Below are positions 3,901-43,487 of a stretch of DNA of 64,000 bases, one piece after another. The stretch comes from Yuukianura sp. NJ FZ-2021 (Eukaryota), in the NCBI GenBank assembly GCA_046563655.1, contig CM102290.1:5704001-5768000 (forward strand), written 5' to 3'. The translations under genes were made by a program, and so were the position numbers. The notes below the pieces were generated by a model. That model did not search any database. It was not told the origin of the DNA and was given only the letters and a program-made list of their open reading frames with translations. The stretch's first letter is position 1; every line of letters begins with the position of its first letter.

Positions 3901-6900
3901 CCAAATTTTTACGAAAACTATTTCATTACCCTATTTATCGGCGTATAACACGCGCGTGTTATCTGTTGTTTTTCGGTCGTAAGATGAAATACAAAAAAAA
4001 ATTCAGTCTATTTCTGATCTTCCTCAGTTCCAAACTCCAGAAATAGGCAAAATTCGGCTTATTTTAGAAATTGCAAATGATATTTCAGTGCGTATTATAC
4101 GCCAGTGCGCGTTATACGCCGATACCTTGGAATTGAGTAGTGGCATACCGTGTAAATAAAGTTGCCCAGGACCAAGTACCCCCCTTCCTTCCCATGTGGC
4201 CACACATCTCCATAGCCATAGATGGCCTTCGACCCCCAAAACAAAATCATGGAATGCAGAACGGCGTTTCCAACCCAGAAACCAAACGTCTTCAAAGAAA
4301 AGGAGTCGGAAGAGGCTCTGTACAGTATTGGATACTGCATTCTCACACTCATGCTGCAACTCTGCTCAAAGATCCCAATCACTATTGGTTGTGCACAAGT
4401 GAACAACTGAAATCAAAACAAAACTTCAATTAATCATGTCAAAGGTCAAAGGTCAACTGAACTTTCTCACCATGTTGTAGAGGCCGATGGTCCATCTTTC
4501 AAAAATAATTTGTCCTGACCAGCCAGAGTAAATTGCAAACCAGAGTTCAATAATGTAGAGACAAATGTTTTTGTAGAAACTGTAGAAAATCAGTTTGCAC
4601 ATTCGATCGTAGTTCCAAGCACCGTGGACCAGCAGCAGTTTCTTCAAGTAGCGAAACTGCGCAATGGCATAATCAGATGCACAAGCTGCCTGCAGACCCT
4701 CCACTCCTGAGATTCCTACGCCAACATGAGCTTTCTGGATCATCGCTACGTCATTGGCTCCATCCCCAATGGCAAGTGTGACTGCTCCTGTTTGAAGTGT
4801 CACGTACTCCACAATCTGAAATGACATTCCAAACTTTCAACGTTTCCTCAAATGTCAGAATCCAAATTTCAAATGCCAGAATCCAAATGTCAAAAATTTT
4901 ACCTCGGCCTTTTGAATGGGTGACGCCCGACAACAAATGACAGCACGACAACTTGTACATAGATTCAAAAAATCTCGACGTAACTCAGTACTCAGGGCAA
5001 ACTTGAGTGTCTTTCCATCCACAATCACCGCTGCATCATTCTCCTTGTTCAAATTCTGCCCATTGTCTCTGCCCAACTCACTGATGTAACCATTGATACA
5101 GTCTCGCGTTGCCTAGAAACACAAAAGTAAAACTTTTCATCTTCTCAATATCAAAGTAAACTTCAAATTTTGTGAAGAATTTAAAAATTGTGGTAAATTC
5201 AAAGTAGCCTCACGTCCAACGTTTCTTCGTTGACGATGAGAAGTTCCATGGACTGAGTAAGCAGACGACAGGAGTAGCCGATATTAATTGCAGTCTCTTG
5301 CTTGTCTCCCGTCAGAACCCAGATACTGATGCCAGCTTTGATCAGAGCAGCAATTGTTTCTGGAACCTAATTAATCGTCTTCCTTAATTAATTAACTTAT
5401 TCTAATTAATTTTCTTATTTTACTTAAATTATTAGCAATTGATGTTACCTCATCTTGCAGCTTGTCTTCAATCGCCGTTGCTCCGAGGAGATGCAAATTT
5501 ATTTCAATCAAGTTGGAAGCTTCTTCAACCTTAAGCTCTCGATTCTGAATGGCAGTGGATGCTTTTTGGTACGTTTGTCGCCAATCCTAAAAATAAAAAC
5601 CACAATTTTTTTCCACAAAACACAAAGCAACTGAAACCAATGTTGGAGTAGTTGTTACTTGATAGGCCTTTGGAGAAATATCTGCCACTGCACAGCAAAG
5701 TGTTCGAAGTCCTTGAGTCGCAAACTCTTCTAGATGCGCCTGAGTGACGGATTTCATTTCCGTAGAATTCAGTGGTGAATTGGACAGTCTGTCGTAGATC
5801 ATCGAATCAGCTCCCTACCAACACAAAATTCAAAATCATTTTCCCACTTTTTCAAAAATTTTGTTCAAAATGTCAGTCTAACCTTGCAGTAAAGTTTGAT
5901 TTTGCCTTCCGGGGTTTTGACAATGACTGACATCCGTTTCCTGGTGGACGTGAACTCAAGGACGTTGAGGACTTCGAATGTTTGCTGCGTGTCACCGGCC
6001 TTGATGACGACATGATTGGGTGTCCTGGTTTCAAAGACATAGCCTAATCGATTGGCCCCATAAACAAGTGCTCTCTCATCCGGTGAAGCGGCATGGTAGA
6101 TGAGTCCAGTATCAGCATATTCTGGAATCACAGTGTGACATACGGACAGGAGCGTCAGGAATTCACGAATATCCTCAGCCGACTTGTGTTCACTTTTCAA
6201 GTTGTCCAGCAGAGGGCAGCTATTCCCAAATAAATCTTCTGGACGATACAGCACACCGCCAACTGAACACCCTTTGAACTCCATGATATTTCTCGTCAGT
6301 GTTCCCGTTTTGTCAGAAAAGATGTAGCGAACCTAATTTCAAAAATTACGACAAAAAAAGTTCAATTCAACATTTTGAAAAATCCAAACAGTTGTTGAAA
6401 ATGTTAACTCACTTGGCCCAACTCTTCGTTGAGATTTGAAGTTCTGGCCATGGCTGGTGTGTTTGACTCTGCGTGGTACATGTCGAGATCATAGTTGATA
6501 AACATTGTCTACAAAACGACCCAAACCAAATCAGGACAACTTCAAATTAGCACAATTTAGTAATTCCTCTCACTTGTACAAATCGAACAACTTCTAGTGT
6601 GACTGTGAGCGAAATTGGAATTAAGTTGTTGTACAAAATACCAAACGTCAACACATTGTACAGGAACACTTTCACCCCAAATTCTAAAAAAAAAAAAAAC
6701 GCACAATCATCAATTATTCCAAACTTTTAGAAAACATTTTGTTAACTTTTAAAAAATCGTGTTTTGAACTTACCCGGTTTTTCTAGATACCATCGATCCA
6801 TACTGCTTTCGAAGAGGTAGCTACAAATGGCAGAGAAGACGGAGATGGTGATGAGGAGAACAAAGAGAATGAGGATTTGCGTATTTGTGAGTTTGTCCAC

Positions 6901-8598
6901 CGTAGAACGTTTGAGCGGAGCAGCAGTAGAGTTTTTCAACAGTTTCGTCTCATGTCCAGCATAAACAACTTGACCAAAGATCCAAGTCGTATTTTGCAAT
7001 TTAGCACCGCGGAGGAGCACTTGATCAGGACCAAGAGCCAAGTCCCTGTTTTCAAAAACATCAATTAACTTCCAACTTCTTAACATTTTTCACTTTTATG
7101 AATTGAACATACTCATTCTGGCCGAGACGCAACCTGCCCGCAAATTCATACAAGTGACGATTCGGTAGTTCACACTCCAGTTCTCCCGAGAGACTGGCCA
7201 AGTCCCTCGTCTCAAGCAGACCAGACGTCGCAAAGAGACCTTGACGCACTTTGAGATTAGTTTCGCCATCCAGGTTGGAAGTTTCTATGTAGCACAGCCC
7301 TTGAGGCTCACTGAAACACATCATTACATTTACATCATTGCATTAACATAATTACATTAACATCATTACATTAACGTAACCTAGCTTATTTAATGTTTCA
7401 TGTCTAACCTTGAGGAGTAGAGAATGAGATCAGCCGGGAAGAATGAATCATTGTGCACTTTGACAAAATCTCCAACAACGACATCTTTCCAGCAAATGTT
7501 TTCCCACGTTTCATTTCTCAGCACTTCCACCCTCCTGTTGTTCGTCTCTTGATCAGCTCGGTGTCTTTTCTACAAACAAAAGTCAAAGGTCAAAGGTCAC
7601 TCCATTCTCAATCACAACTTGACTCATTTTCCTTACATAGTCTTCTATAATTTCCTTAACTGCTGACACTGATAAAATAAATACGAGAGGTACAAGTGTA
7701 GTAAAGCGTCCAGTTGGAGACACGTCCGGGATTTGCTACAAATCAACCAAAAAGTCATTTTTACTTTTAAAATTTCCACTTTAAACTTTGAATTTTAAGT
7801 GATTTACCTGGAGTAGAACAATTATGAGGAAAAATATATTTGAGTAGCGTCTAAACTGTTCAAAGAGAAAGGCGGGCAGGAAGGAGACGAAGGAGTACTT
7901 GGCAGTTGAAATTCGGTTCCCTCCGAACTTTTCAATTTGTGGACTGTTGATGTAGATTAGGCGTGTTTTCTCCCGCCCTGGGGCATGACTAGCTCGACTC
8001 GCACGACGCAGACGTGCCATGGACGAACTGATTCCTCCAGCCACACGACCTTGACCTCTCCCGTCCTCTGCATCTTCCGCCATCACTGGAGAATTCCCAC
8101 CACCATCCGCATCTGTACAAAAATCAAACAATTTAGTGACCTCGTGACCTCTATTTCAAGTAATCGATAGTCACTTTGCAACAACTCATAAATTATTCCC
8201 TCTGCATCAATACTCACATGATCGATTCCTCTACATGCGTCACACTCATTACCAAACCCAAAAAACTAAAAACTAAAGACCTCAGCAACACAAAAGTTGT
8301 AAACAAAATTTAAAAATTTCAAAACGCCCTTGCCTAAGCAATGCTGCTCAAAGTGAAACTAAATCTTCCCATACAACCAAAAACCAAATTTGCAAAAAAA
8401 AAAAAATACCACAACAAAGTTATGCCTATACGTCACTCTTTTACAAATTAAGTTCTATCTTTAAAATTTTAAATCTTAAAAATTTAAAAATTTAGTTGTG
8501 TTTGAACCTCTTCTTCTTCCAGGTCCGCTTCCAAGGAGTGACATAAAGTACTCCGAACTCCGACGTTGAAACCGATTCAAAAACACTCTGAAATCCAT
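961..8598 (-). CDS. ATP8A: P4-type phospholipid-transporting ATPase (flippase), ATP8A1/2-like, multi-exon
   Basis: Hand-spliced GT-AG exons give [94 protein letters not shown] and C-terminal [20 protein letters not shown] (last exons 1366-1275 and 1058-961). First coding exon 8598-8508 is inferred from a phase-1 fit to the exon at 8112 and is less certain. Confidence 0.95.
3929..4130. mobile_element. pogo/Tigger-like MITE in an ATP8A intron
   Basis: Imperfect terminal inverted repeats (ccctatttatcggcgtataac...gttatacgccgatacc) after a TA; a related end occurs at 20457-20516. Confidence 0.55.
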
Positions 8599-15929: not shown

Positions 15930-18340
15930 ATGAAACTACTACTGCTTCTAGTCTGCTTTGAGCTACTCATCCACAGTTTAGTAGCACCGCCTGTAACTGA
16001 AAAGAAAAAGACAGAAGAACACGAAGATAAAGACAACGATGTCAACTCCAATGTTAGTTTCTAGTGTTGTCACTTTCTACAATTGAATGTTAGTAATTTG
16101 TTTGACTTGATCAGGTGATGGACGTAGAGTACAAGAGATACTTGCAAGAAGTTGTTCAGTTACTCGAGGGCGACGAAGACTTCAAGAAGAAACTCATCGA
16201 AGCTACACCAGAACAAATCAAAGTAAAGCATACAGCTAGTTAATTTGAGTTAATTGTTACAAACCGAATTTTTGAAAGAATTTTGAAATTTCAGAGTGGA
16301 GACATAGCTGAACATGTTGAAGGTTTACATCACGGTCTCCGAACCAAGTTGGACGAGCTGAAGCGACAAGAACTGGAGAGACTGAGGCATCTGGCCATGC
16401 AACAGTACGAATACGACAATCACATTGACAGTAAACATCTAAAAATTGCTCAGCATCTCGATGCTAGCAATCCACATACTTTTGAAATCGAGGATCTTCG
16501 TAAACTAATCATCCATGTAAGTTCCTTTCTTTGATTTTATTTTCTCGTTGTTTAATTTTTTTTTGTCTGTTTAGACTACGAAAGAACTGGAAGCTGCGGA
16601 TGACCAGCGAAAGAAGGAGTTCAAAGAGTACGAGATGCAGAAGGAGCTTACTTACCAAGAGCAACTGAAGCATCTTGACGAGAAGAATCGCATCGAGGCT
16701 GAGAAGCAACATCAAGAAATGATGGCGAAGCACAACAAGCACGCACCTATTCATCATCCTGGAAGTAAAGATCAGTATGAACAAGTGTGGGAGGAACAGG
16801 ATCACATGGCTTCAGACAACTTCAATCCCAAGACGTTTTTCCATCTCCATGACCTGGATGGAAATGGATTCTGGGATCCAGTGGAGGTGAAAGCACTGTT
16901 CAAGAAAGAATTGGACAAGATGTATGACCCCAATGCACCAGAAGATGACCTCAGAGAGAGGTACGAAGAGATGGAAAGAATGAGAGAACATGTCTTCAAC
17001 GAAACAGATGCAAACAGAGATCAGCTCATTTCGTAATGCTCAATTACTCTTTTCTTTCTTTTTTACAATTTTCAAGGTTTTTAATAATTTGTAAATACGT
17101 TTGTACAACGTTTTTGTTGTTTAGGTTTCAAGAATTCTTGGAGCAAACAAAGAAGAAAGAATTCGAAGACGATACACAGTGGGATCCGATTGATCAAAAA
17201 CAACATCCAGTCTACTCAGAAGATGAGTACAGACAGTATGAACGCCAACATGCTGAAGAGATTAGAAGAATGATGGAACAGGGACATGTAAGACCTTATA
17301 CAATGGAAACGTTTCTTTGTCGTTATTTCACATTTCCGATTCCTGAGTAATTTCTTACTTTTTTGGTAACATTTTGAAACCAATCTTCCCAGAGCTACTA
17401 GTTTTAAACATGTTTTTGCTTTTTGTATAAATGGAATTCCGCCATCGTGTTTTTCAGATTTTGATTGTTTTGTTTTGAGCGGCCTTTTTTGATTTTTTTT
17501 TTGCAACCTGTTTTTAGAAATATGCTTTGGGTTTTCTGTTACGTTACTTAATTTTTGAGTAACTAAGAATGTTGAGCTTTTGTGACTGGCGTTATTAACT
17601 AAGTTTAATTTAGTTAACTTTTGTTAATTTTAATTTGCATGAAGATTCCAGCGGCTCCGCCCGGATTCGTGCCCGTGGTCATTCCGCCTCCAGTGGGAAT
17701 TCATCCTGGATCCAATGTATGACAGACGCATGAGATCAAACACTTTCTCTTTTTTTCACCTTCCATAAGTTATTGCTTTGTTTTCTTAACTCCCGGGTGC
17801 TTCCTCATTTCCTAAAGAATGATCGAAGTCATTTGAATTTGTGGATTCTGTTTTTAGATCCCTCCAGGAATTAACCCAAATATGATGCCACAGGGGTATC
17901 ATCCTAATGGGTTCCAGCAGGGATACGCCAATGCTCCACCGCAGTATGGAAACCAGTTCCAAGATCCACATCACCAGCAGTACCAACAACAACAGCAACA
18001 GTATCAACAACAACAGTTCCAACCTCCTCCACAACAACAGCAGTTCCAGCCACCTCCACAACAACAGCAACAGTACCAACCACAACAACAGCAGTTCCAA
18101 GCACCTCCTCAACAGCAACAGCATCAACAACAACAACAGCAGCAGCAGCCTCCACAACAACAGCAGCAGCAGCCTCCACAACAACAGCAGCAACAACCTC
18201 CACTGCAACAACAACCTCCACAACAACAACAACAACAACCTCAAGCCCCGCCTCAACAGCAACAGCAAACTCAACCAGCGGCAACACTTAATCAGGGTTC
18301 GCCGGATCACAACGCCCCTCCCCAGACTGGGCATCACTGA
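15930..18340 (+). CDS. NUCB1: Nucleobindin (NUCB1/2-like secretory EF-hand Ca2+-binding protein) with Q/P-rich tail
   Basis: Exons 15930-16052, 16115-16222, 16295-16516, 16575-17032, 17125-17287, 17645-17716, 17858-18340, all GT-AG and in phase. Signal peptide plus APP, YLQEVV, RTKLDELKRQELERLR, HHPGSKDQ, EF-hands DLDGNGFWD and DANRDQLIS. Confidence 0.93.
17975..18275 (+). repeat. Coding CAA/CAG poly-glutamine/proline repeat
   Basis: Repeated cctccacaacaacagcag units in frame with the last nucleobindin exon. Confidence 0.9.
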
Positions 18341-19639: not shown

Positions 19640-19894
19640 TTTCAGTAGTGAGGTCAAAGGTCAAACTTTGACTAATTTGTAAGCTGGGTCAAAGGTCAAA
19701 CTTTTAGTATTTTGTAAGTTGAGTGAGCTGGGTCAAAGGTCACATGGTGTGCAGAGCCACGTGACACAAGTTTGTTTTGCGGTGAAAGTGGATTAGTTTT
19801 CACGTTTCACTTTCACGTTTTCACTTTTCACGTGACGAACGAAAAGTTTTTGCAGAACAATTGCGTGGAAGAACCTGTTGATACTTTGGTAAGT
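19640..19894 (+). promoter_or_regulatory. Putative promoter and non-coding first exon of the GRD-like gene
   Basis: Consensus donor TG|GTAAGT at 19889; three (A/G)GGTCAAAGGTCA motifs at 19651, ~19686 and ~19730; candidate acceptor ttcag| at 22443 upstream of ATG 22544. Confidence 0.35.
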
Positions 19895-25500: not shown

Positions 25501-28500
25501 AAAAACTCATTTTTTTAGAAATTTTTTTTAAAAAGGGACTGGATGAGAGTGTGCTGTGATGTTGCGATTGTTGGTGAAAGTTGGCGCAGAAGAAAGTTGT
25601 GACTTTGGGTTTATTTTGTTGTGGTGCTTTTGAAGGGGTTGAGCATGAGAGGTTTTTGGTGGAGAGGTCTCTCGGTCCATTCTTCCATTAATTGGTTTTG
25701 AACACGACGACAAAGTAGGTTGTTTGAACAGCACCAAAGTCAAATGGAAATGCACAACCTCTGTCAACACAAACAAAAGTACAATCCAAAAGTCACTCCA
25801 AGCACAAGAATTTACAAAAACAGAACAAGGTGTTTGAAGCTTCATTTACAAAAAAAAAAATGGAGATTTTTGAAGCTGAAATGTCAAATGGTTTGAATTT
25901 GAAAATTCAAAATTTTGAAATCAGGTTTGAGCGGGAATTGAAATGTGGGGTTTCGTAATTTAAGGTTTCAACGATAGGAGGAATTTGTTGGTCTGCTTTT
26001 TTTTTTCTTTGTGTGGAATGTTGTTGGTTGAAGTAGAGGAGAATTTTTGTGGTTGACTTGAGCGAGTGCTGCATCGGTTGTATCCATTTGTAAATTGTTT
26101 CCAGACGTACAGCATGGACTGTTACTTTCGGCAGTCATGGACGGATGAACGCCTCTCCTACAGTTCAGCCTCCAAAGGAACACTCGCACTCAGCATCTCC
26201 ATGCTAGAGAAAATTTGGAAAGTTAGTCCATTTTCAAACACACTTTTAAAAAATGCATTTTTTTCAAAACTGAACTCTTTTCTTTTTTGAAAATTTACTT
26301 TCTCTAGCCGGACACTACAATTAGAAATGGGTACATCGTGTTGTTGAAAAACCTGAATTTTTTAAAAGTGAAAGTTTAATTTTCGAAAAATGGAATTTGA
26401 TTTTGAGTTTGATTTTAGAAAGCAGTCGTACCTGCATACGATCACGACTCCCAACAAATTTGTGCGTCTTTACCCCGATGGACGAGTTTTGTACTCGTCA
26501 AGGTCAACTGTTAATTTAATTAAATTAAGATTAATTACGATTAATTATTAATTAGTTTTCATATTATATTTTTCACTCTATAGGTTAACAATCAAGGCTA
26601 GTTGTCCCATGGACCTCAGGTAACCAAACTATATGTATCCGCACGATAATCTAAAGAAGAAAAAAATAAAAAAAAAACAAAATTTTTTTTAAAAATTTTC
26701 TGTGCTGTTGAAATTTAGCAATTTTCCGATGGATACCCAAAGGTAAAAACATATAAAATTTTAGAGTAGAGCCAAAAACTAAAATGAAAACAATTTTTTT
26801 TTGTAGATGTTTGCTAAAAATTGGATCCTGTATGTAACAAATTAAATTAAATCCAAGTGCATTTAAATTAAACTATATTTAAGTTAAATCACATTGAAAT
26901 TAAACTTTAATGGTAATTAGCTGTATTTGCTCTCAGTTGGCTATACTACAAGAGACGTGTTGTACCGTTGGAATCCTAATCGGACAGTGGACATTGCCCC
27001 TGACATGAAGATGTCCCAGTTTGACCTCATCTCCACCCCTGCAGGCAACTCCACTGACCACATGAAGTCAGGTGACCTTTGACCTCTTACAACAAATCAT
27101 GCACAACTTTATTTGTTCTCTCAGAATTTTAGTCAAAATGAGGAGCAAAGTTATAAAAGTTGATGAAATTGACATCCCAAGAGTTGACCTTTGACCTGGC
27201 GTTGACCTTTGACCTTGGATTGACGTTAGGTGATGTGAGTGTGGTGGAGGCGTACTTCGTGTTGCGTCGTCACACAGGCTACTATCTGCTCCAAGTGTAC
27301 TTGCCTGCCTATCTACTCGTGGTCGTTTCCTGGGTTTCATTTTTCATAAGCACCCTGGGGGACAAGGTCACCTTGGGTGAGAGTTTCCGTCCTTCAGTCG
27401 ATTAGTCACAATGCTCACACACAGGGGTCACTCGAGGTCAAGGTCACTTGAAAGCACTGCTTTTACTTCACAAATCTATGCTTTCACCAGCAAAGTAGCA
27501 GGAGAGAGCAGGTTTTGTTCGAATGTGTGTGTGTGTTTTTATATTCTCAAAATAGGAAGACGACTGATTTAGAGAGAAAGATTTTGAGTGAATTTTTATT
27601 ATAATTTTTTGGAATTTTTGAAGAAATTAAGACCTCGCCGTTTTTTTTTTTCGTTTGCTTAGGAGAGTATTCTTCACTGGAAGTGAATTTTCATCTGCAG
27701 GTAACTTTTTTGAAAAAAAAAAGTTTTTTTTTTTTTTGAAAAAAAAAGGTGTTTTGAAAAAGTTTTTGTTGACATTTTGATTTTTGGGTAGCGTCACATG
27801 GGTAACTTCCTGATCCAAGTGTACGGCCCCTGTACACTGCTCTGCGTTCTCTCCTGGGTCGGATTCTTCCTCAATCGGGTGAGGAGGAAAACCACTTGCA
27901 TATTTTATTTTATATATTTTAATATATACTTCAATATTTTCATACACACTTTACATATTTTAACATGTTTTATATAATTTAATATAACTCACACCCCCAT
28001 TCACAACTTCTAATTACTCACTCTTATCCAGGAAGCCACTTCGGACCGTGTCTCACTTGGAAAGTTATCTTAATTACTTTAATTACAAGTAATTACAATT
28101 TTAATTCATGTAATTCGTGCAATTACAGGAATCACAACGCAGTTTACAATTACTCTGTTGGGACTTGAAGCGCGCGCAGATCTCCCCAAAGTCCCTTACC
28201 CAACGGCACTCGACTTTTTCGTGTTCCTCTCATTTGCATTCATATTTGCATCTATCATTCAAGTAATTAAATATTTTAACTAACTTATTTAATTACTTTA
28301 ATTAACTTATTTATTCAAACTTATTTAATTCATTTTTTCTAACTTATTTTATTGTAGTTTGCCATAGTTCATTCCTTTACGAAAGTGGGTTCTGGAGAAG
28401 TGTACTTTAATGAGGACTCTTCCGATGATGAAGATGGAAGCGACCAGGAACCTCTTCCACATCCTGTACTTTTTCAAGTTAAAATTCAAAAAGAAATTTA

Positions 28501-29303: not shown

Positions 29304-32300
29304 TTACTTGTCTCGTCCTGGCTGTCTGTCACAAGTATCATGTAGGTAGGCATACATGACCCAGTAAAACACCTACAATTCAAATTAAATAATTAAAGTA
29401 TATAAAATAATTAATAAATAATTAATTAATAAATAAATAATTAATATATAAATAATTTTACGTTGAGGAAGAGGAATGAGACTGGGAAGAGGACACGAGA
29501 GACCTTGTCTATTTTGGAGACGCTGTTGGAGAATCTGCCCGATGCTGCTGCCCTCTGCCGCTGCCTCCGAAATTTGTCGTCTGCCACGACGCAACGCAGA
29601 AACTGCCTGAAGCACGACGCTTTCTTCTCCGTCTGCGTCTCCTTCGACTCTGTACTTCTGGAGGGGGTCACGATCCCCAGATCCCCCTTCCACCCACAAC
29701 CACGATCCTACAAGGTCAAAGGTCAAAAGTAGGTCAGAGGTCAAAGGTCATTCATCAAAGTCTTACAGTGTCGTTGAGCAGCAGGGATGGAACGCGGAGA
29801 CTCATGAGGGGAGGGGGGTCAAGATCACACGACCCCCCTTCCCCGTTTCCCCACTCCACAAGCTCCCCATCCTCATCCTCACCCTCCTCCTCCTCAGCAA
29901 TCTTCTCACCACTGTTGATCTAAACCAATTTCACAAAATCCCACTTTTTTCGAAATTTAATTTAAAAATTCAAAATTTTGGCAGTTGTAAAAGATGTTTA
30001 TGAATATTTAAACAACAGTTTCTTCTCTTCTTCTATAAATCAACGTCTAAATTTAAAAAAGAAGCGGTGGTTTTGAAAATAAAAATAACTGTTGAGCCTA
30101 TTTTAAAAAACATTTGTGTTTTTTTTTGAAAAGTGTGTTTAAATATTTCAAAGTTTTGAGGAATGAAGTTGAATTTGCGTAAGTTAAGTGGATGGGGCAA
30201 AGGCTTTTCTTGACTCGTTGTCATGTCTGCTCCAGAATACGAAAGTAGCAGCAAAGTGACTAATGTTTTCCACTTTCTCAAAAAAAGAGAAAGAGAGAGA
30301 AAGCGGAACTTCATTTTTTAAATTTGGCACAAACCGCCTCTTTTCTTTAAATTTTTATTTGAAAACGTTCAAAGTAAGTGACAAAAAAATTAAAGAAAAA
30401 AGCGGGATAAGGATTTTATCTTTTGAAAACGTTTCAGTAGCAAAACAAATGTTGACGTCCATCAGAATCTAAAATGTGCTAAATTTTGAAATTTAGTGTT
30501 AAGTTTTAAAAGAAAAATGGTGACACTTACCTTTGTAAAGTACTGGCCAGGGACAGATTGTTTTTTCAAAAACATGAAAAAATTGAAAAAGAGCTGGAAA
30601 TTTAAAAATTGAAAAAATTGCTTACATGGACTCCCGCGAATTCCAGTAGAGAGGCCATGCAGTATCCGAAACTCATGAGGATGAACCAGTCCAATGCCGT
30701 TGCGTAGTGGACTTTGGGCAAATCTGTTCTCGTGTCAAGACTGATTGTACTCAGAGTTAAAAAGGCAGTAATTCCTGAAATTTCACATTTCAAAAAGTAA
30801 GTCAAAAACTGGTTTTTCAAAAAATTTTCAAGGAGGGATGACCTTTGGCCTCCCAGTGTACTCCGAGAGTTTTTTTTTTTCAATTTTGAGGAAGCGAGTG
30901 GGTGCAATATGTGGGATGCAATAGTGAAAGTTGGAGAAAGTTGAAACAAAGTTTAGTTTTTAGAACAAACATTTTCAAAACAGTTGTGCAACTCACCCAG
31001 CCCAACACGGTCGCTAGTTGACTCCCGATTTATCCTGAACCGTTCAAAAAAAATTTTTTTTTTAAATTCTTGAACTTAACATTTCGAAAGTTTTGATTTT
31101 TTTACCAGAATGAAACCCAGGACAAAATGACGATGAGGATGCAAGGAACGTAGACTTGAATCAAGAAAAATCCGGCATGACGAACCAGCTCAAAATTTAC
31201 TTGCAACACGGAAAAATCTCCTAAAAATCACTTTTTTTTTAAAATTTCAAAATTTCAATGCTCATGTTTTTTTGAACAAGTGTTTACCATCTCTGGTTGT
31301 GAGGTTGTAAGAAGTGAATGGGCTTTTGACCAGGTCAAATTGAGACAGAGTCATGCCAGGGATGAAACTGACGCCTGGTTTGTCTTTGTCCCACGAATAC
31401 ACGATGTGTCGCAAGGGATAAGCAACTTTCAAAAAAACATTAAAAGGGCAACGCAGTTCGCTTATGGGCGAGAGCAGACCCGTACGATTTGGCTGAAAAT
31501 TTAACCAGTTGTTCTCGAGGTCCATAGGAACAACTTTTGTACAGGGCGTACATGGGGCATCAAACGGTTTGACCTCCAGGGGTCACCAAAGGTCAAGGGG
31601 TCATCCTATGACAACCCCCCACAAATAAGGTATCGTTGGAAAGGTCTTGACCTCAAGGTTCAGAAAATGTATGGGTATCAATACTTTGATTCAGGCGTTT
31701 AGCCGTAAAGGGTCACTGAAGGTCAACTATGAAAAAAGTTGCAAAGTACCAAAAAGTGTAAATCGTTACATGACAACCGGCAAAATGACTTATACAAAAG
31801 TTGTTCCACTCAGAAAAATAAGCAACTTCTTCCTCTTACATTTTTTTCTACGGCAAACAGCTGACGAGATACCGACCCAGTCCAAAACTGATAAAAGTAG
31901 ATTTCAGTTAGGACTTTCGCGACAGTAAAACGGGATCTGATTGTTTCCTACAGTTTGGACTGAAACGTGAGAATATTATTGTTTTAAGAAGCTACTTTCT
32001 TGACCCCTTTCCGTGTTCTGGGGTAGCCTAGAGGCATAGATTCGTCGTTCTTGTTCAACTTCCTTTTACTGTCGCGAAAGTCCTAACTGAAATCTACTTT
32101 TATCAGTTTTGGACTGGGTCGGTATCTCGTCAGCTGTTCGCCGTAGAAAAAAATGTAAGAGGAAGAAGTTGCTTATTTTTCTGAGTGGAACAACTTTTGT
32201 ATAAGTCATTTTGCCGGTTGTCATGTAACGATTTACACTTTTTGGTACTTTGCAACTTTTTTCATAGTTGACCTTCAGTGACCCCTTACGGCTAAACGCC

Positions 32301-35300
32301 TGAACCAAAGTATTGATACCCATACATTTTCTGAACCTTGAGGTCAAGACCTTTCCAACGATACCTTATTTGTGGGGGGTTGTCATAGGATGACCCCTTG
32401 ACCTTTGGTGACCCCTGGAGGTCAAACCGTTTGATGCCCCATGTACGCCCTGTACAAAAGTTGTTCCTATGGACCTCGAGAACAACTGGTTAAATTTTCA
32501 GCCAAATCGTACGGGTCTGCTCTCGCCCATAAGCGAACTGCGTTGCCCTTTCCAAATCTACTTATATAAAATCGAGACCCTGTTTATCTGTGTGTGTGTG
32601 TGTTCCACTACTCCTCCGAAACTACTGAACCGATTTTGACAAGTGAGGTGTCCTTTTTATCGTGAGGTCACCCCGCAGAGAATAGGCTATGTCACATCTT
32701 GACCTGTGACCTTTGACCTTGGCCCTAGCGCGATGACCTCACAAAATCATACCAAACACAGGCAAATGACATATCGTTCGAAAGCAGAGGTCAAATGCAG
32801 TCGATTGATGTATGACACATTGACCTGTGACCTTTGACCCTTGACCTAGAGCGGTGACCTCATATAGATTTAAGCTGAACATAGGCATGTTGTATATCGT
32901 CCGAAACGGGAGGTTCAAAGGAGTTGATTGACGTATTTCACGATGACCTGTGACTTATGACTATTGATTTAACGCAGTGACCCCATCTACTTATATAACT
33001 CCGAGCCCCTGTTCATTTGTGTCTGTTCCTCTACTCCTTCGAAACTACTGAAGCGATTTGGACAAATGAGCTGTCCTTTTCTTCGTGATGTCTCCCCGTA
33101 GGCTATGTCACATCTTGACCCGTGACCTCTGACCCTTCACCCAGCGTCATCACCTCATCATATCATATGAAACACAGGCAAGTGTCATGTCATTCGAAAG
33201 CAGAAGTCAAATGCAGTCGATTGATGCATCGCATAATGACCTGTGACCTTTGACCCCGGAGCTTTCGCGGTTACCTCATATAAACTCGAACGAAAAATAG
33301 GCATGTGATATATCATTCAAAAGGGGAGGTGAAATGCAGTTAGGGACATTGACCTGTGACCGTTGACCTTTGATCTATGGCCATGACCCAATAAGTACAC
33401 ACAAACATAGGCCTGTGATATATCATTCGAAAGAGGCGGTCAAATGGACTCGGTTTACGTATGTCGCGTTAATTCTGTGACCTATGGCACCAAAAAGGAA
33501 TTAAGTTCCACAGTATATGTCTCTTCTCTACATGTTAAACATTAATTGGATGGACTGGTAGTTTTAAGGGATTTCCGCCTGGGCAAAGGGTAGGGTATAA
33601 TATTTTCATAAAAATAGTCCAAGCGGGTCAGCATATGTATCTCAAACGGGTAGCGGGTTCCCAAAAGGGATAAGTTTTTCTGTGTGTGTTCGTATACACT
33701 ACCACAAAAGCTAGCCCCGCTTTCACAAGCGGGTATCATACCTTGTTTTTAATAAAAATGGAAGCAAACATAGTAAGAGCAAACAAACCAAAATTCCTTA
33801 TTCAAAATATTTTTTTTAAAAAAACTTACAACTTCCAAAAGTGAGAGCGCAGCGTTGTGTGTCCAGTGGAAAGTTCTGTTGAACGTCGGCAAAAATAAAA
33901 AGAGAAATTATTAGAAAGTGTCCTCACTCCAACTAAAGATAAAATATGTGAAAAGAAAGGATTTGCTAAAATGTGTTTGAATTTGGAATAAAACGTGAAT
34001 TTTGTTACCCTGAGGCACATTTCGCACTTGGCCTTGATAGTGAGTCTGGAATTGTTAATTGATAAGTTTAAATTGATGACCTTGACCTGGGTCAAAGCAG
34101 GATTGTTACCGCATGGAGTAGAGTATCTCCCCCTCCTGTGTAAGACGCAGTAGTTTGTTGGGTACGGTGATCGTGTGCACGTAACTGTGCCTTCCATTTC
34201 TAAAGAATGTATCTGGGCCTAAGGACATGGAAAACATTACGTTAGGGGTACTTCAAGGGCACTCAACATAGGATTAGGGGGTACTTATGCTTAGCATAAC
34301 TTTTGGTGTGGTTAACATACATTCATGTGGGGGTACTTACGCCAAAGTCTCTCGAGCATCTTGATGCTAAGGCTGAGGCTTTCCACAGGACCACGGAAGC
34401 TGAGTCTCGGATCCCTCCAGTACTACCAACCACATATCCCTCAATACAACTCTCTCAAATATGTTTGACCTTTGACCTTGACCTTCCCCACTTCCAAAGG
34501 TCAAGGTCACTCGCCAAAAAATACTTTTTGTAACAAGAAAGTTGTATTCAGAGTACGTAACTGGCGAAAGTAGCAATCCATCGAGTAGTCCTACAACAAC
34601 CAAATTCAAAATTTTAAAACATTTTTTTTTAAATTTTTTGAAAATGGTTTTTAAAAAAAGTGGTTCCTGACCATGTCCAATTCCGAGATGGGCCCCATGC
34701 TTCTGATGAGCATGTTTGTCCTTACGACGGTCGGTGTGCCTGTAAATGAAAAAAAAAGACTTTCTCCTGGAGTGAAAGTCACTTTCGTTAAAGTTAGGCT
34801 AAAGTTAGGCTAACCATAGTCTTTTAAGTGGTTTTTTTGGTGTGTGAATGGAGGTTTTTGTGTAATGGAGGGGGGACTTATCCTGAGGGGGGACTTAAGT
34901 CCAATCTACCCTCTCAATCTCACAAGAATCAATTCAAACCAGGAGACTTAAGTCCCCCTTTGTCTTCCCACAAAGGACTCACCTCCACACACCATTTCAA
35001 ACTTACTCAGACTTGGGATTTCACCTTTCAAGAATTCTTTGAAATGATTTCCATTTTGAAAACCGTGGAAATCTCGGCGGGACTTTTTGAAAGTTTCAAT
35101 TTTGCCACCAGTCAACAAAAACTGTGTGAGACACGAGAAAACAATCGGAGACTCACAGCAGCTTTTTCAATTTTTTTTGGCGGGAGCGGAAAGTGGAATT
35201 CCTCGAGGGCATAACATTCTTTTTGAATTTAGATTTTTATTATGATTTTTGAAAAGATGACTCCTGTGCATGAGTTAACACGGTCGTTGTCAGATTCGGA

Positions 35301-36471
35301 TTGAGATTAGTCATGCAAAGCAGCCTAATAATGGATTTGGAATTTACGCGGGAAAAAATGATTTTGAATTTTGGCGGGAAGAAAAGATTTTGAATTTGGG
35401 AGGTCGTTTTTGGGAGGAAATTCAAACGGTATCCCAAAATCCACTTGACGCTTAATCTCCACAAATAAGAAGTTCAATCCTCTCTCAACACAACAACCTT
35501 AGGCAAAGATCAGCTTCCGGTTAGCCTAACCTTACCTTCACATAATAACCTAACATGCTTAGCCTAACACAACAAAGCTTATGCATTTCTCAAAATTTGT
35601 GCCAACTTGGTTGAAGTTGAAGTTATGAAAAAGAGAAAGTTCAGTGGAGCGTATCATTTTCAGAAACAACTTTTCTAAAAAAGACTTTGAGAGAAGCTCA
35701 TCTTCCGTCTTTTCAATTTCCCGCTTAAAAGTGGACCATTTTGTGCAGAACGCAGCTCATCTTCTCTCATTTTCAAAAACTTTAATTTCTGTTCAAGATT
35801 TTTAGAACAAAGAGTGGAGAGAAAGCGAGGAGAGTTGCCTTGGATTTCCTTAAGCCACCAAAACCGTCACTTCCCTTCATTTGTCTTGCTCTTCAACAAC
35901 TTTATAAACTTTTGATTAATTGACTCTTTTTTAAAAAAAAAGTTTTTTTTTTAAAGAAGATTTTTAAAAAAGAAAAGAACTAATAGAAAGTGTTTGAGAC
36001 AGAATGAAGTGAAACTTTCCCTTTTGATTTCATTCATATTTTCTTCTTCGGCAATTGTCGCACTTACGCCTTATGCTTTTTCCCTTAAGTTTAACTAATT
36101 AATTTAATTAATTAAGTTAAATTTATTAAATTTGAGTAATTAATATATAATTAAAATGGTTTTACCGAATCTGTAGTTGGGATGCTGGCTGCTGTCGTAG
36201 TTTTCTAGCAGAAGATCCAGAATTTGCGTAATATTTTTTAGCAAAAGTTCCTGTTTTCCTCCCTTTCCAATCGTGTTTACTCCAGACACACTGAACATAA
36301 CAATAAAATAAAATAATTATTGTAACAATTAATAATTAACCAACTAGTAATTAAATTATTGTAATTAATAATGTATTTTATATTAGTTTTTAATAAATTG
36401 TTTTGTTACCTCGTGAAATATGTGAAGGAGAATAGAAGCGAAACGAGGAAAAAACCGGTGAGGTGGAACAT
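29304..36471 (-). CDS. GABA receptor alpha-like Cys-loop subunit, CG8916-like, multi-exon
   Basis: Spliced peptide: [13 protein letters not shown].., [117 protein letters not shown], 12-nt exon YFTK (30542-30531), [15 protein letters not shown], ..GRDK*. One donor is non-canonical (34560). Confidence 0.88.
31443..32551. mobile_element. Foldback element: 488-bp near-perfect inverted arms with a 133-bp spacer
   Basis: 31443-31930 is the reverse complement of 32064-32551. The mirror ORFs 31647+ and 32347- differ at only two residues. No TSD seen. Confidence 0.9.
32557..33745 (+). mobile_element. Non-autonomous Helitron-like element with an internal ~120-bp tandem array
   Basis: A|TCTACTTATATAAAA start, (TG)n, ctccgaaactactgaaccgattt; a second head near 32986; TGACCTGTGACCTTTGACC-type units about every 120 bp; 3' hairpin cccgctt..aagcggg followed by CTTG|T. 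Confidence 0.7.
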
Positions 36472-37808: not shown

Positions 37809-40569
37809 CTAATCCTCTTGAGGAGGATCGTTTCCGACGTAGTAGGTGAAAGCAATCCAGTAGACGAGTACAAAGAGAGCGAATGCAGAGGGGAAAAGCC
37901 TCCTTGCATAGATGTCGAGTGGAGAGAACTTGTTGTGTGGCGTAGAGGTGGTGAAAGTGGCTGGATTTGTGAGTTTGTGTTGGATCCAGAGCCAGGGTTT
38001 GCAGGCGGGTGACTTGGGCGGGTGGGTTCGAGGCTTGAGAGGCTGAAATGAGACATTAAGTTTCTGTTAGGATCAGGCTTGTCAAAAATATGTACTAAAA
38101 CCCTTAAAATATTTTTTTTAAATGTGTTTTTTAAAAATAGCCCATATATTTACTTATTTAGGATAAAGGGCATGAGCAAATAAGTGAATATTTAGAAACA
38201 AAAAAAAGAAATATTTTTTTTTATTAAGATTCTGAGGAGGGAGACATTAAATATAAATATTTTTGCCATCCCTGGTTATCATGCATACAGTTGAATTTGG
38301 AGGTTAAAAATTTGAATTGAATTGACCTTGGTTTGGGTTTCCCGCCACTGGACCCTCAGTTTGTCTAGGTAGTTGATGCAGGCGTACTCCACCATGGATG
38401 CAAACACAAATGAGAAGCAGAGGATGAGGAACCAGTCGAGTGCAGTGGCGTAAGAGGTGCGTGGTAGAGATGCCCGCCCGCCAAAACCCAACGTCGTCAG
38501 GGACAACACTGTTGTCACTCCTACAAAAACAAAATTAGAAAGTGAGTGGAAGATTTAAATTCAAAGTGACGACGGAGGCAGGGGAGCGGGAAAGTGGATT
38601 TGAAATACCCGGCTACATCTGAGTGACAGACTGAATCTTTTTTAACAGTTTCCATTTTGTTTTGGGAACTTTTGAATCAGGCGGTATTTTTTTTAAAAAC
38701 TTACCGAGCGAGACACGGGCCGGGACAGCAGCCGGGTCAATCCAGAAACTGACCCAGGAACAGAAAACGATGAGAGTGCAGGGGACGTAGACTTGAAGGC
38801 TAAACACTCATTCCAAAGGAATTAATTAATTAAATATTTAATTAATTAAAACTTGATTTAATTAATAAAATGTTTTTGAACAATGGTGTACATTAGGACT
38901 TACAGGAAGTAGCCTGTGTGGCGACTGAGATGAAACTCGGCCGAGATGACAGAACCGTTGTCTAAATCGGTATTTTTTAAAGTGTTTTAAAGAAGATGAT
39001 TATTTGAATTATATTTATATTATATTAAATTAAAGTTTAAATTATTATAAATTGACCATGTCTGCTGGTGGGGAGGATGAGTTCATTAACGTGGATGGTG
39101 ACGAGGTCATACTGGGCAGGGTTCACGCCCTCCTCTTTGTCCACTGGCTTTGGGTCCCTCCACTTGTACTGTACATCCCCAGTCGAGTAACTGTAGCTCC
39201 CCAGCAACAGACAACACCTCTGCTCATCCAGAGGAAACTTCCTGAAGGGTTTATTATAATATATTAAATATATTATACAAAATAAACATATTTAAATATT
39301 TTAACCAGAATTATACCTTAGGTGCATCCTGCAACGAGCACGAATGGTAAGGCTAAAATAAAATAATAATTTGTGAAATACTTTTAATTAATTATAATTA
39401 AATATTTTATAGTCTGATTACCGCATAGAGTAAGTGATGAATCCGTCGTTCCTGAGGCGCAGAAACTTGTTGGGAACTGTGATGCTGTGGAGTTTCGTTC
39501 CAGTGACGCTGTTTATCACGTAAGTGTCAGGCTATAATATTTATTTATGATAAAATAAATTATTTAAATATTAATAACTATAAACATTACCGTCCACACT
39601 TTGTCCAGAAAAAGCCAGTTGAGTGAAAGTTCGTTTGTCGTGGGAAGGTGAAAGGCGAGACGCTTGTCATACCACATGTGACGCAAGTACAAGTCTGCGC
39701 TAAAAATCTAAAAAAAAAAAGTATTTTAAAAAGTTAAAACTTTTTTAAAGAAGTTTTTAAGTATATTTTTCAAAATATTTATAAAGTAATAAGAAAATTT
39801 ACTTCTTCCGTTTCCAGAACTGGTCCAATACTTTTGATATACAAGTTGACTTCAATTGTGAGGGGCTCTCCTTGAGAATAAATTTATTTAAATGTAATAA
39901 AATAAATTAAGTATTAAAATTAATAGAACAAGGGACCCTAACTTTTGATGAGGTAATTGAATTTGGCTTAGAGAAAGTTAGTTCCACAACTTTCTTTTTT
40001 CCAGCCCCACGCCTTCCAACTTTCTCCAGCTTAAAGTCGAAAGAAGAAATAAGTGGCGTCTAAGCTCTGGAATTGAATTTGGGGGGTGAGGGGGTGACTG
40101 ACCTTGAACCCCCCCCCCCACTTTGGTGACCCCCCCCTCTCTTTTAAGGGGGGGGTTGAGGGGGAGGGGTGACTCTGGTTAGTATTTGTCACTTGTGATT
40201 CATTGCTTGTTGCACATGGTGTACATTAACATGAACACCCCATTTACTTCCTTATTTCTGGCTTTAGTGAACATCAACAAAATATGACGACGTGACAAAA
40301 TAAGTTTCCGAAACTACAGACTTTTCAGGAACTTTAAAAAGAATTTTTTTTACTTGAAAAAAATTTGAAAACAAAAAAAAAATTACTAAAATTTTTGTTT
40401 TACCTCCGAAATTTGGTCTAAATCTTTTGTCATAGTTGTCCTCCCTGAGTAGATTGTCTAGGAGTGTGGTGACATTGTTGGACAATTCTTTGTAGTAACG
40501 CAACTGCGCCTGCGCACAAATTTCCAAAACTAATTTCAAAATAAGAATCAAAACACAAACCAAATTCAT
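37809..40569 (-). CDS. GABA receptor alpha-like Cys-loop subunit with PAR motif, 10 coding exons
   Basis: All [142 protein letters not shown]. Confidence 0.9.
38074..38274. mobile_element. Degenerate hAT-like MITE in the last intron of the PAR-motif subunit
   Basis: caggcttgtcaaaaata ... tatttttgccatccctg; 8-bp flanks gttaggat/gttatcat match at 6 of 8. Confidence 0.45.
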
Positions 40570-41430: not shown

Positions 41431-43487
41431 ATGAAAAACTTTATTTCATCAAAAATATTTTTGAGTTTGTGGAAAATCCTTTGGATCTGCTCTACTGCCG
41501 ATTGGTAAATTTTGAATTTTTTTAGTTCAGGTAAACGTTTTTGCTAACAAAGTTATTTCAAGATGATTTTGTAGTTTGACCTCTGACCTGGACGAAACTT
41601 TGAAGCTGTCCAACACCTCTCTAGGTTTGGCCAAAATCCTGGACGGGTATGACGTCCGCCTCCGACCAAATTTTGGCGGTAAATTTGAATTTTCAAATTT
41701 ATTTGATCTGCGGTGACTAAAAAGAAAAGGCGGAGTTTTGAATTTTAAGTTTGTTTGATTTTCTGGGTGAAGCGGATCCACTTTACGTTGGGATCGAAAT
41801 CCAAATTGCAGAAATTAACGCCTTCTCGGAAGTCAACATGGTTAGTTAGACTGAGCAATTTGGTCAACAACAAATACGCCGACTGCAATTTGGTCAACAC
41901 TTGTTTCTAGGACTACACTGTGACGATATTTTTGAACCAGTATTGGAAAGATGAGCGACTTGCTTTTAGCACAGGCGAAGACCGGCTCACTTTTACCGGA
42001 GATTTTGCAAAGCGGATTTGGGTTCCTGACATTTTCTTCCCTGCAGACAAAGACAGGTCGATCAGGGGAAATCAAAATTTTCAAAATTTCATTTTTTTTT
42101 AACTTTTTTTCATTTTTTCATTTTTAGTTTCATTCATGACGTGACCCAGCGGAACCAAATGGTTCAGTTGAGTGGTGATGGAAGTATTTTGTACGGAATG
42201 AAATTCACGACTCGTGAGTCTTGTCAAATGGATCTCCGCAACTTTCCACTCGACTCACAAAACTGTACCGTAGAAATCGAATCATGTAAGACCGGAAACC
42301 GGAACAAAAGTTTCATTTTTGATTCCGGTACGAACCAATTAGAGAATAATTTGAGTTTCGCGGTTTTCATTTTTCCAAGATGGTTACACTGTGAAGGACG
42401 TCGTAATGTACTGGAAGGACAATGCCGTTTCCGGAGTCGAAGCCATTCGGTTGCCACAACTTCGAATCGGCGGCTACGACACGAACGACAGAATTGAACG
42501 ACTCGCCACCGGAATTTATCAACGACTTTCACTTTCCTTTAAATTTGAACGACGTTTTGGCTACTTCTTTTTCCAAATGTATCTTCCTGCCATCCTCATC
42601 GTCATGCTCTCATGGATCTCATTTTGGTACAAAAAAAAAATTCAAAATTAAAATTTCTGAACTTATTATAAATTCCTGGTTTTGTAGGATTTCAAATGAC
42701 GCCACAGCAGCCAGAGTGGCTTTGGGGATAACCACAGTGTGCGTAAATTTAAATATTGAATTTAATTAAGTTAATTTAAATTTAATTAATATAATTTAAG
42801 TTTAATTAATGTTTTAGCCTAACGATGACCACGATTAACAACAGCGTGCGGAACTCCCTGCCTCGAATCTCGTTTGCAGCCATTGACGTGTACCTGGTCA
42901 CGTGCTTCCTCTTTGTCTTTGCAGCTCTCATTGAGTACGCAGCAGTCAACTACATCTTTTGGGAACAAAAGAAGCCAAAACCAAAAAACGCCAAATCAAA
43001 ACCACCCAAAATATGCACCATTTCAAACGTAAGTTCCCGCAATTCCTTGTCTTTTCTCAACTTTTGAAATCCACTACTTTTGAAACACACTGTATTTTTT
43101 TCTAAACAGAGGTTAAAAGGAATGTCAACCGTCTTTCGAAGAAAGAGCAAAGAGCGGCAAGTTCAAAAATTTCAAAAAGAGCAAAAAGTACAAGTTTCAA
43201 TTGAGGAAAAGAGTGAACCTGCGGAGAACTTAAGCAGTGGCAGAATGCGAAGTTTCAGTTTCTCTGGAGCCATTAGTTTAGAAAAATGTGTGCGTAGAAA
43301 ACGAAATCAAGGAGTTGTGCGCATGGGCATTGCCCAACGTCGGATTTGGCAAAATTTGAAAACGAGAGTCCAAAGTCCAATGGTGCAAGACGTCAGTTCA
43401 GTTGACAACTACTCCAGAGTTTTATTCCCTCTCACATTCTGCATCTTCAATGCCTTCTACTGGACTATTTATAGGAACAAATCTTAA
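41431..43487 (+). CDS. Lcch3: GABA receptor beta-like subunit, LCCH3-like, multi-exon
   Basis: [113 protein letters not shown]; all introns GT-AG. Confidence 0.92.

Follow-up and report, generated by a model that had tools for sequence, protein, structure and literature searches.

A probable alternative M1 cassette in the GABA-receptor gene GRD of a springtail-like hexapod

Can one GABA-receptor gene supply two subunits that share their ligand-binding domain and membrane segments M2 to M4 and differ in M1? The question is raised by a 64,000-nucleotide stretch of DNA from Yuukianura sp. NJ FZ-2021 (assembly GCA_046563655.1, contig CM102290.1, positions 5,704,001 to 5,768,000, forward strand), referred to below as the window. 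In it, a Cys-loop receptor gene identified by its sequence as the ortholog of GRD ('GABA receptor alpha-like') carries a 147-nt exon, exon B, ahead of three short exons, A1, A2 and A3, that together form route A to the same M2 exon. Our analysis led us to regard exon B as probably a functional alternative coding module of GRD, maintained by selection in a springtail-like hexapod. It appears to descend from an old tandem duplication that took in pre-M1, M1, the M1-M2 loop and the first four residues of M2.

Two open routes to a shared M2 exon

The exons that make up the two routes lie as follows in the window.

26937-27071, plus strand: upstream constitutive exon, loop C region; ends in phase 1 with a GT donor
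27230-27376, plus strand: exon B, 147 nt; pre-M1, M1, M1-M2 loop and M2 positions 1'-4'; phase 1 to phase 1, bounded by AG and GT
27663-27700, plus strand: exon A1, 38 nt; pre-M1 of route A
27792-27878, plus strand: exon A2, 87 nt; M1 of route A; Pfam Neur_chan_memb positions 1-20
28032-28059, plus strand: exon A3, 28 nt; M1-M2 loop and M2 positions 1'-4' of route A; GA donor at 28060-28061
28129-28262, plus strand: shared M2-M3 exon; phase 1; Neur_chan_memb positions 31-74

A first-pass annotation, made from the letters of the window, had proposed that the exon ending at 27071 is followed by two in-frame routes to the M2 exon, one through a single exon and the other through three. All of its coordinates and sequences held. 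With the exons joined by coordinates over 26105-28262, route A (38+87+28 = 153 nt) is open over 243 codons and route B over 241, the M2 exon ending at 28262 and not later. Exon B consists of 50 codons. As had been described, it is free of stops and bounded by AG and GT, and it keeps the M1 proline and the S-W-V motif. Its M1-M2 loop reads G-D-K, followed by V-T-L-G, and we found it to be two residues shorter than the loops of route A and of all five other B cassettes aligned, in agreement, as far as route A is concerned, with the earlier description. Among the splice sites checked in the GRD gene, all 12 acceptors are AG and 11 of the 12 donors are GT.

Exon B matches proteins far beyond chance. 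With its 50-residue peptide as the query, phmmer returned 1010 library proteins at E<=0.001 and 27 at E<=1e-10; a word-based protein search with exon B against longer proteins gave a score to none of the 15 candidates. Residues 23-50 of exon B align to Neur_chan_memb positions 1-30, positions also covered by exon A2, so that the two are alternatives and not complements. In the top phmmer matches (P0002-P0008), the scores come from two or three M1 matches per protein, and P0004 contains an identical 50-residue block three times. These proteins are chained or duplicated gene models, which suggests that tandem M1 modules are often mis-joined in automated annotation. P0002 and P0003 look like nematode models chained in the manner of unc-49.

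The assignment of the host gene was examined with the 44-residue upstream exon as the sole query, which matched 18 of 21 candidate proteins at E<=0.01. The closest named matches were the GRD proteins of Folsomia candida (81% identity), Allacma fusca (80%) and Orchesella cincta (76%), above those of thrips and odonates (70-75%), and two unnamed protein fragments were 86-89% identical. On the basis of these best hits, the window was taken to come from a springtail-like hexapod. The 12 named matches, with 64-81% identity, were called 'GABA receptor alpha-like' or were unnamed or hypothetical proteins with the same domains. 'GABA receptor alpha-like' stands for GRD in the abbreviation list of PMC12309072. 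The translated window exons match PF02932 at positions 1-30 (B), 1-20 (A2), 31-74 (M2 exon) and 207-233 (M4), in each case below the whole-protein cut-off, as expected of fragments. The B-only isoform of Folsomia matches PF02931 at 1.8e-43 and PF02932 at 1.2e-31.

At positions -2'/-1'/0' before M2 (numbered here by our own count from Arg at 0'), route A reads S-D-R and exon B G-D-K; neither has P-A-R, and both have Asp at -1'. According to the louse GRD paper (PMC11037462), the cation signature of GRD consists of Ala-Asp at -2'/-1' together with Phe at 13'; the window GRD keeps the Asp and differs at -2'. Co-expressed with LCCH3 in oocytes, GRD forms a GABA-gated cation channel whose role in vivo is described as still unclear (PMC2064938, PMC11037462), and a cation channel of this composition has been reported for the GRD of fly, bee, mite and louse (PMC11037462).

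Conservation, descent and selection

Exon B is conserved in relatives, the layout of B followed by A occurring in two named springtails and two independent metagenome contigs. Eight Folsomia candida models were examined, the RefSeq isoforms among them being automated models: B is followed by A in four (X1, X2, X6 and OXA53154), A stands alone in X3 and X5, and B stands alone in X4 and X8 (X7 was absent from the cluster members returned and is not among the eight). The Orchesella cincta model contains B, then a read-through intron, then A. The Folsomia gene belongs to the same family as that of the window and has two cassettes in the same order and with the same protein boundaries; over 243 residues, identity is 81.1% between window route A and X5 and 75.7% between route B and X8. 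Both Folsomia cassettes have 52 residues and the same loop, whereas window B has 50 residues and G-D-K.

An alignment of six B cassettes served to scan metagenome contigs; a pattern was matched by 134 stretches, and 11 loci were confirmed. Only L001 and L002 matched over the whole cassette; in the other nine (L003-L011) the matches covered only 16-25 residues at 52-69%. In L001 and L002 alike, the upstream exon is followed by B, the A exons and M2, with order and phases as in the window, and in both, exon B has AG/GT sites and a strong polypyrimidine tract. L001 is Folsomia-like, with a two-exon A module ending at a GT donor, in contrast with the three exons and GA donor of the window. L002 is closely related to the window: its A module also has three exons, and the protein of its M2 exon is identical. 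The cassettes of the two contigs are placed as follows.

L002, 6002-6154: exon B
L002, 6765-6802: exon A1
L002, 6876-6966: exon A2, as aligned
L002, 7254-7387: M2 exon
L001, 1392-1544: exon B
L001, 2077-2114: exon A1

B orthologs were thus obtained from four other genomes or contigs (L001, L002, Folsomia and Orchesella). Orthologous B cassettes are 68-73% identical to exon B of the window over their whole length, and the identity between A and B is 58-69% in the pairs of species that were compared. Beyond the springtails, nothing more was found than a mite GRD, whose one cassette is intermediate.

A tree was calculated from 22 cassettes over 52 columns (eight each of A and B, five paralog-like phmmer hits and the mite GRD; the A cassette of Orchesella, which is truncated, was excluded). 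The eight B rows formed one clade with a support of 98/93. Window B was the sister of L002 B (93/77), and both were joined by the unnamed fragment P0013 (99/96); the mite GRD cassette was placed with the A cassettes and had a long branch. The B clade and the sister pair within it point to vertical descent within GRD, to the exclusion of capture from a neighbour. The first-pass annotation had spoken of a captured or ancient exon that resembles the neighbouring subunit with the P-A-R motif more than its own gene. Its antiquity is borne out by the conserved layout, but the tree contradicts the capture, and the likeness to the neighbour is confined to a short motif: R-H-T-G-Y is shared with the P-A-R gene at 38903-38959, but in tblastn exon B matched that gene in pieces (65% over 17 residues and 47% over 34), against 68-73% over the whole cassette for B orthologs. 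The corresponding values were 54% over 39 residues for the other neighbour and 51% over 35 for exon A2.

Window and L002 were then compared for nonsynonymous (pN) and synonymous (pS) differences, with pS at 0.72-0.78, that is, saturated, in all four parts of the region.

Exon B: pN 0.169, pS 0.73
A module: pN 0.026, pS 0.78
Upstream exon: pN 0.073, pS 0.73
M2 exon: pN 0.020, pS saturated

In a short-word blastn comparison of the two loci, only the exons aligned, and the introns did not. The aligned blocks were the upstream exon, B with 11 intron bases as an island, A2 (82% nucleotide identity to L002:6876-6966), A3 with 6 intron bases, and M2. Since the pN of exon B lies far below the saturated pS and only exons align, B is a coding exon under purifying selection. 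B evolves about six times faster than A.

The A module has an unusual feature of its own, which the first-pass annotation had overlooked. The donor after A3 is GA (28060-28061), the sole non-GT donor of the 12 checked. Window and L002 alike have an A3 that ends in CTTG and an intron that begins with GAAAGT; in L002, A3 occupies 7098-7125 and the intron starts at 7126 with the same G|GAAAGT junction, the conserved blastn block around A3 extending over the first 6 nt of the intron. Within A3, the two loci differ by four synonymous exon changes, and all 6 differences in the loop codons are synonymous (0 nonsynonymous). The corresponding junction of L001 has an ordinary GT. The same junction in L002 ruled out a sequencing error or a private mutation as the source of the GA. 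A canonical GT five bases downstream of A3 was also ruled out as the donor, as no AG of the M2 exon restores the frame from there in the window or in L002. A U12-type intron was rejected on reading the donor sequence, which is not U12-like. Because the junction is conserved in L002 and the downstream GT breaks the frame, the intron at 28060-28128 appears to be a genuine conserved GA-AG intron, its splicing being judged from conservation.

GA-AG introns are spliced in vivo in Eurytemora affinis, in Oikopleura dioica and in human FGFR genes (PMC7072748). The intron described here shares with them the GA in place of GT within a flank that is otherwise consensus-like; it differs in being an exception, one of 12 donors of the gene, and not a genome-wide habit as far as checked.

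What the choice of cassette would change, and how the readings compare

The first-pass annotation had proposed that exon B swaps the ion-selectivity filter of the channel. The comparison of cassettes did not support this. A and B differ at about 20 of the 52 cassette positions, and the differences that recur across species lie around the pre-M1 arginine and at several M1 positions; the residue before the M1 proline is Gly in A and Phe or Leu in B. In the loop, the sole difference found in all species examined is at pore position 2', which is Ser in A and Thr in B, and in Folsomia, Orchesella and L001 the two loops are otherwise identical. Asp at -1' and Arg or Lys at 0' occur in both cassettes, so that no switch between cations and anions is predicted, and a change of charge selectivity by the A/B choice seems unlikely. 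The choice would rather be expected to affect gating, assembly or sensitivity to channel blockers, and perhaps conductance. Position 2' is also the site of blocker resistance in RDL. The two-residue deletion and G-D-K are found in the window only; L002 has a loop of full length with G-D-R, and the B loop is fast-evolving in the clade formed by the window, L002 and P0013.

The shared M2 exon is itself unusual. In the window, M2 has Gln at 8', Phe at 9' in place of the normally conserved Leu, Ile at 11' and Leu at 13', where GRD normally has Phe. The M2 exon protein of L002 is the same, so the Phe 13' of the GRD signature was found in neither, whereas the GRDs of Folsomia, L001, thrips and odonates keep Leu 9' and Phe 13'. 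For permeation and gating, this M2 may be more important than the choice between A and B. Where M1 ends, a conserved Trp has given way to Phe or Tyr, with different codons, in both cassettes of the window and L002, and the B cassette of P0013 has the same Phe. The parallel replacement fits a joint constraint on, or adaptation of, both isoforms to the altered M2.

We infer that exon B is spliced in the window species and that it alternates with the A module. A transcript would most likely take either exon B or A1, A2 and A3, and then enter the shared M2 exon in phase 1. Two subunit isoforms would follow, with a common ligand-binding domain and common M2-M4 segments and with different M1 cassettes; in the window lineage, the A module would end in the conserved GA-AG intron, and the B loop would be the fast-evolving one, shortened by two residues in the window. 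Exclusive use of the modules is suggested by the fact that they cover the same Pfam positions and that a second M1 would reverse the orientation of the membrane domain behind it. The first-pass annotation had called the splicing asymmetric and mutually exclusive. The asymmetric part stands, with its alternative route of one exon against three, and the A-only and B-only models of Folsomia agree with alternation; no mechanism that would enforce exclusivity (a frame shift with decay, an intron too short to splice, incompatible splice sites or RNA pairing) was found. B and the A module are homologous exons in tandem, in the same phase and both conserved, as expected of mutually exclusive exons, and the division of the A side into three exons in the window and two in L001 is atypical of them. 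The intron between B and A1 measures 286 nt in the window, 610 nt in L002 and 532 nt in L001.

The intron before exon B contains a short repeat, which has the following copies near the exon.

27073-27084, 27185-27196 and 27203-27214, plus strand: three sense copies of TGACCTTTGACC, in the intron before exon B
27435-27454, plus strand: partial antisense copy of the repeat, downstream of exon B, 75% complementary to 27189-27208

The repeat consists of tandem TGACCTT-like heptamers. It has 33 matches in the window, counting both strands, against 0.42 expected, and they lie mostly in introns and between genes (for example at 947, 4444, 7588, 13149, 19652-19742, 29714-29750 and 32700-33375); it is absent from the corresponding introns of L002 and L001. 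It is probably a dispersed short repeat or the remnant of a mobile element, and it resembles direct repeats of the half-site of nuclear receptors. An arm at 27440-27451, overlapping the antisense copy, is 92% complementary to 27068-27079. Competing RNA pairing through the repeat was considered as a means of control and rejected, the repeat being dispersed and absent from L002 and L001, and the excess of duplex being restricted to the window; we keep it solely as a possibility specific to the window. The introns on either side of B were folded whole against each other with duplexfold, a crude test that had mononucleotide shuffles as its control; the observed value was reached by 0 of 200 shuffles in the window, 63 of 200 in L002 and 75 of 200 in L001. 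The excess in the window comes from the dispersed repeat.

Several observations weigh against an exon B that is in use in the window species as a strict alternative to A. Some of them would fit a decaying or silent relic, B being functional in relatives and the window species making the A isoform only, a reading that we consider improbable. The protein branch of window B is long (0.26 against 0.045 for L002), and with P0013, the nearest outgroup, seven B substitutions are specific to the window and none to L002; the A cassette has no such asymmetry of rate. The loop of window B carries a unique in-frame deletion of 6 nt, or two codons, in a stretch of otherwise invariant length. The polypyrimidine tract of L001 and L002 has been lost before window B, where the pyrimidine-poor sequence now holds the dispersed TGACCT repeat, and the roughly sixfold stronger conservation of A points the same way. 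Decay is argued against by the open frame with its AG and GT intact, by a deletion that preserves that frame, by the fact that, of eight substitutions specific to the window, six are conservative (E>D, L>V, K>R, F>Y, L>I and R>K) and by a pN that has stayed far below the saturated pS; moreover, with the more distant outgroups (L001, Orchesella or P0020), the excess is only six window substitutions against two in L002. The reverse possibility, that the lineage relies mainly or only on B for a functional M1 and that the A module is being lost through a mutation of its donor from GT to GA, has in our view a very slim chance. The GA donor speaks for it, but donor and flank are identical in L002 despite saturated synonymous sites, and A belongs, with its low pN and its loop codons free of nonsynonymous change, to the best conserved parts of the region, A3 included; introns of this type are, besides, spliced in other animals (PMC7072748).

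Other observations touch the exclusivity of the two modules. Both are multiples of 3 nt (147 and 153 nt), and inclusion of both or of neither stays in frame, so that nonsense-mediated decay could not enforce a choice. No conserved intronic pairing able to do so was found in the window, L002 and L001, and half of the Folsomia models examined, as well as the Orchesella model, hold both cassettes. A subunit with two M1 segments is nevertheless highly unlikely. From the four-helix topology of the family, an extra helix before M2 would be expected to invert M2-M4, and the protein would contain Pfam positions 1-30 in duplicate. Chaining of tandem alternative exons is common among gene predictors, and the Orchesella model even reads through the intron. 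We give hardly any credence to the view that exon B is an assembly chimera or a fragment without a role, captured from a neighbouring paralog such as the P-A-R gene or the convergent GRD-like gene. The shared R-H-T-G-Y, the presence of four Cys-loop genes in the window and the repeats flanking B might be cited for it; L001, L002, Folsomia and Orchesella have orthologous B exons in the corresponding position, the B cassettes form a clade apart from the paralog-like outgroups, exon B is 47-65% identical to the neighbouring genes in pieces against 68-73% to its orthologs, and the flanking repeat is dispersed through the window and absent from L002.

The reading of exon B as a functional alternative module can be extended, tentatively, to a scenario that we think unlikely. 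The two modules would form an old switch, kept by selection and built as one exon against several, between two forms of the hinge for gating, of M1 and of the pore mouth on the cytoplasmic side, in a GABA receptor permeable to cations. The weak GA donor may tune the A/B ratio, and the short, nicotinic-like G-D-K mouth of the window together with its odd M2 (Gln 8', Phe 9' and Leu 13') would alter the conductance, calcium permeability or blocker sensitivity of the B isoform.

Related systems and the rest of the window

The literature searched, which held few subscription journals and no supplements, contained no M1 cassette in GRD and no paper on a springtail GABA receptor. The statement in the first-pass annotation that no such splicing has been described in GRD therefore holds for the papers searched, but not for the databases, where the automated Folsomia RefSeq isoforms model both forms. 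In the portions at hand of a potato-beetle survey and a spider transcriptome study, no GRD cassette is mentioned. The only GRD splice variation that we found in print is that of Tribolium, from the same gene family, in which variants 1 and 2 arise by differential use of splice sites that inserts residues in loop C, and not by an alternative cassette; the same text states that no splice variants of Drosophila or Apis GRD were observed (PMC2064938).

A closer parallel is exon 8 of the insect nicotinic alpha6 gene, which exists in three versions that are likewise tandem alternatives, change a pore-forming segment and are conserved between species (PMC2064938). The alpha6 exons concern TM2, replace each other singly and have been shown by RT-PCR, whereas the GRD cassettes concern M1 and the M1-M2 loop and are predicted from sequence. 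Exons 3 and 6 of RDL and exon 3 of GluCl are also mutually exclusive tandem exons of arthropod GABA and glutamate channels; unlike the GRD cassettes, they lie in the extracellular domain, away from the membrane helices and the pore entrance (PMC2064938, PMC13762713 and PMC13512814).

One GRD gene of a springtail would, if our interpretation is correct, yield two types of GRD channel. Springtails are standard soil test animals, and isoform-specific sensitivity to insecticides that act on GABA receptors could be relevant in them. The nematode Caenorhabditis elegans has a related arrangement in unc-49, a single GABA-receptor gene with a common N-terminal part and alternative multi-exon modules that contain the membrane segments. 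The unc-49 modules run to the end of the protein, whereas GRD would swap a short internal module and share M2-M4. The present locus is set apart by three details: one exon stands opposite three, a GA-AG intron is conserved, and the M2 of the lineage is odd. It offers a clean natural example of one exon standing against a group of two or three very short ones, and of a GA-AG intron retained across saturated synonymous divergence.

The GRD ortholog (plus strand) is the first of four Cys-loop receptor genes that lie within about 21 kb of the window, at about 22700-43500. The other three are the following.

About 29440-36300, minus strand: convergent GRD-like gene
About 37848-39704, minus strand: gene with the P-A-R motif
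About 41911-43472, plus strand: fourth Cys-loop gene, with an alanine-rich loop

Intron positions within the M1 region differ in each of the four genes. An intron of the minus-strand convergent GRD-like gene contains an inverted repeat of 488 nt, ending near one exon, whose arms (31443-31930 and 32064-32551) are 99% complementary and separated by a spacer of 133 nt. Either an actual duplication able to form a hairpin or an artefact of assembly could account for it.

In the GRD gene itself, the short exon at 26308-26330 encodes P-D-T-T-I-R-N-G in place of the usual P-D-T-Y-F-Y-N-G, and the same residues are encoded in L002 at about 4921-4944; this part of the ligand-binding domain is usually invariant, and the change is a further one specific to the lineage. 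Farther upstream in the window, open frames at about 16100-18340 on the plus strand encode an EF-hand-like stretch followed by a glutamine- and proline-rich run of about 160 residues, which resembles a gene of the nucleobindin type.

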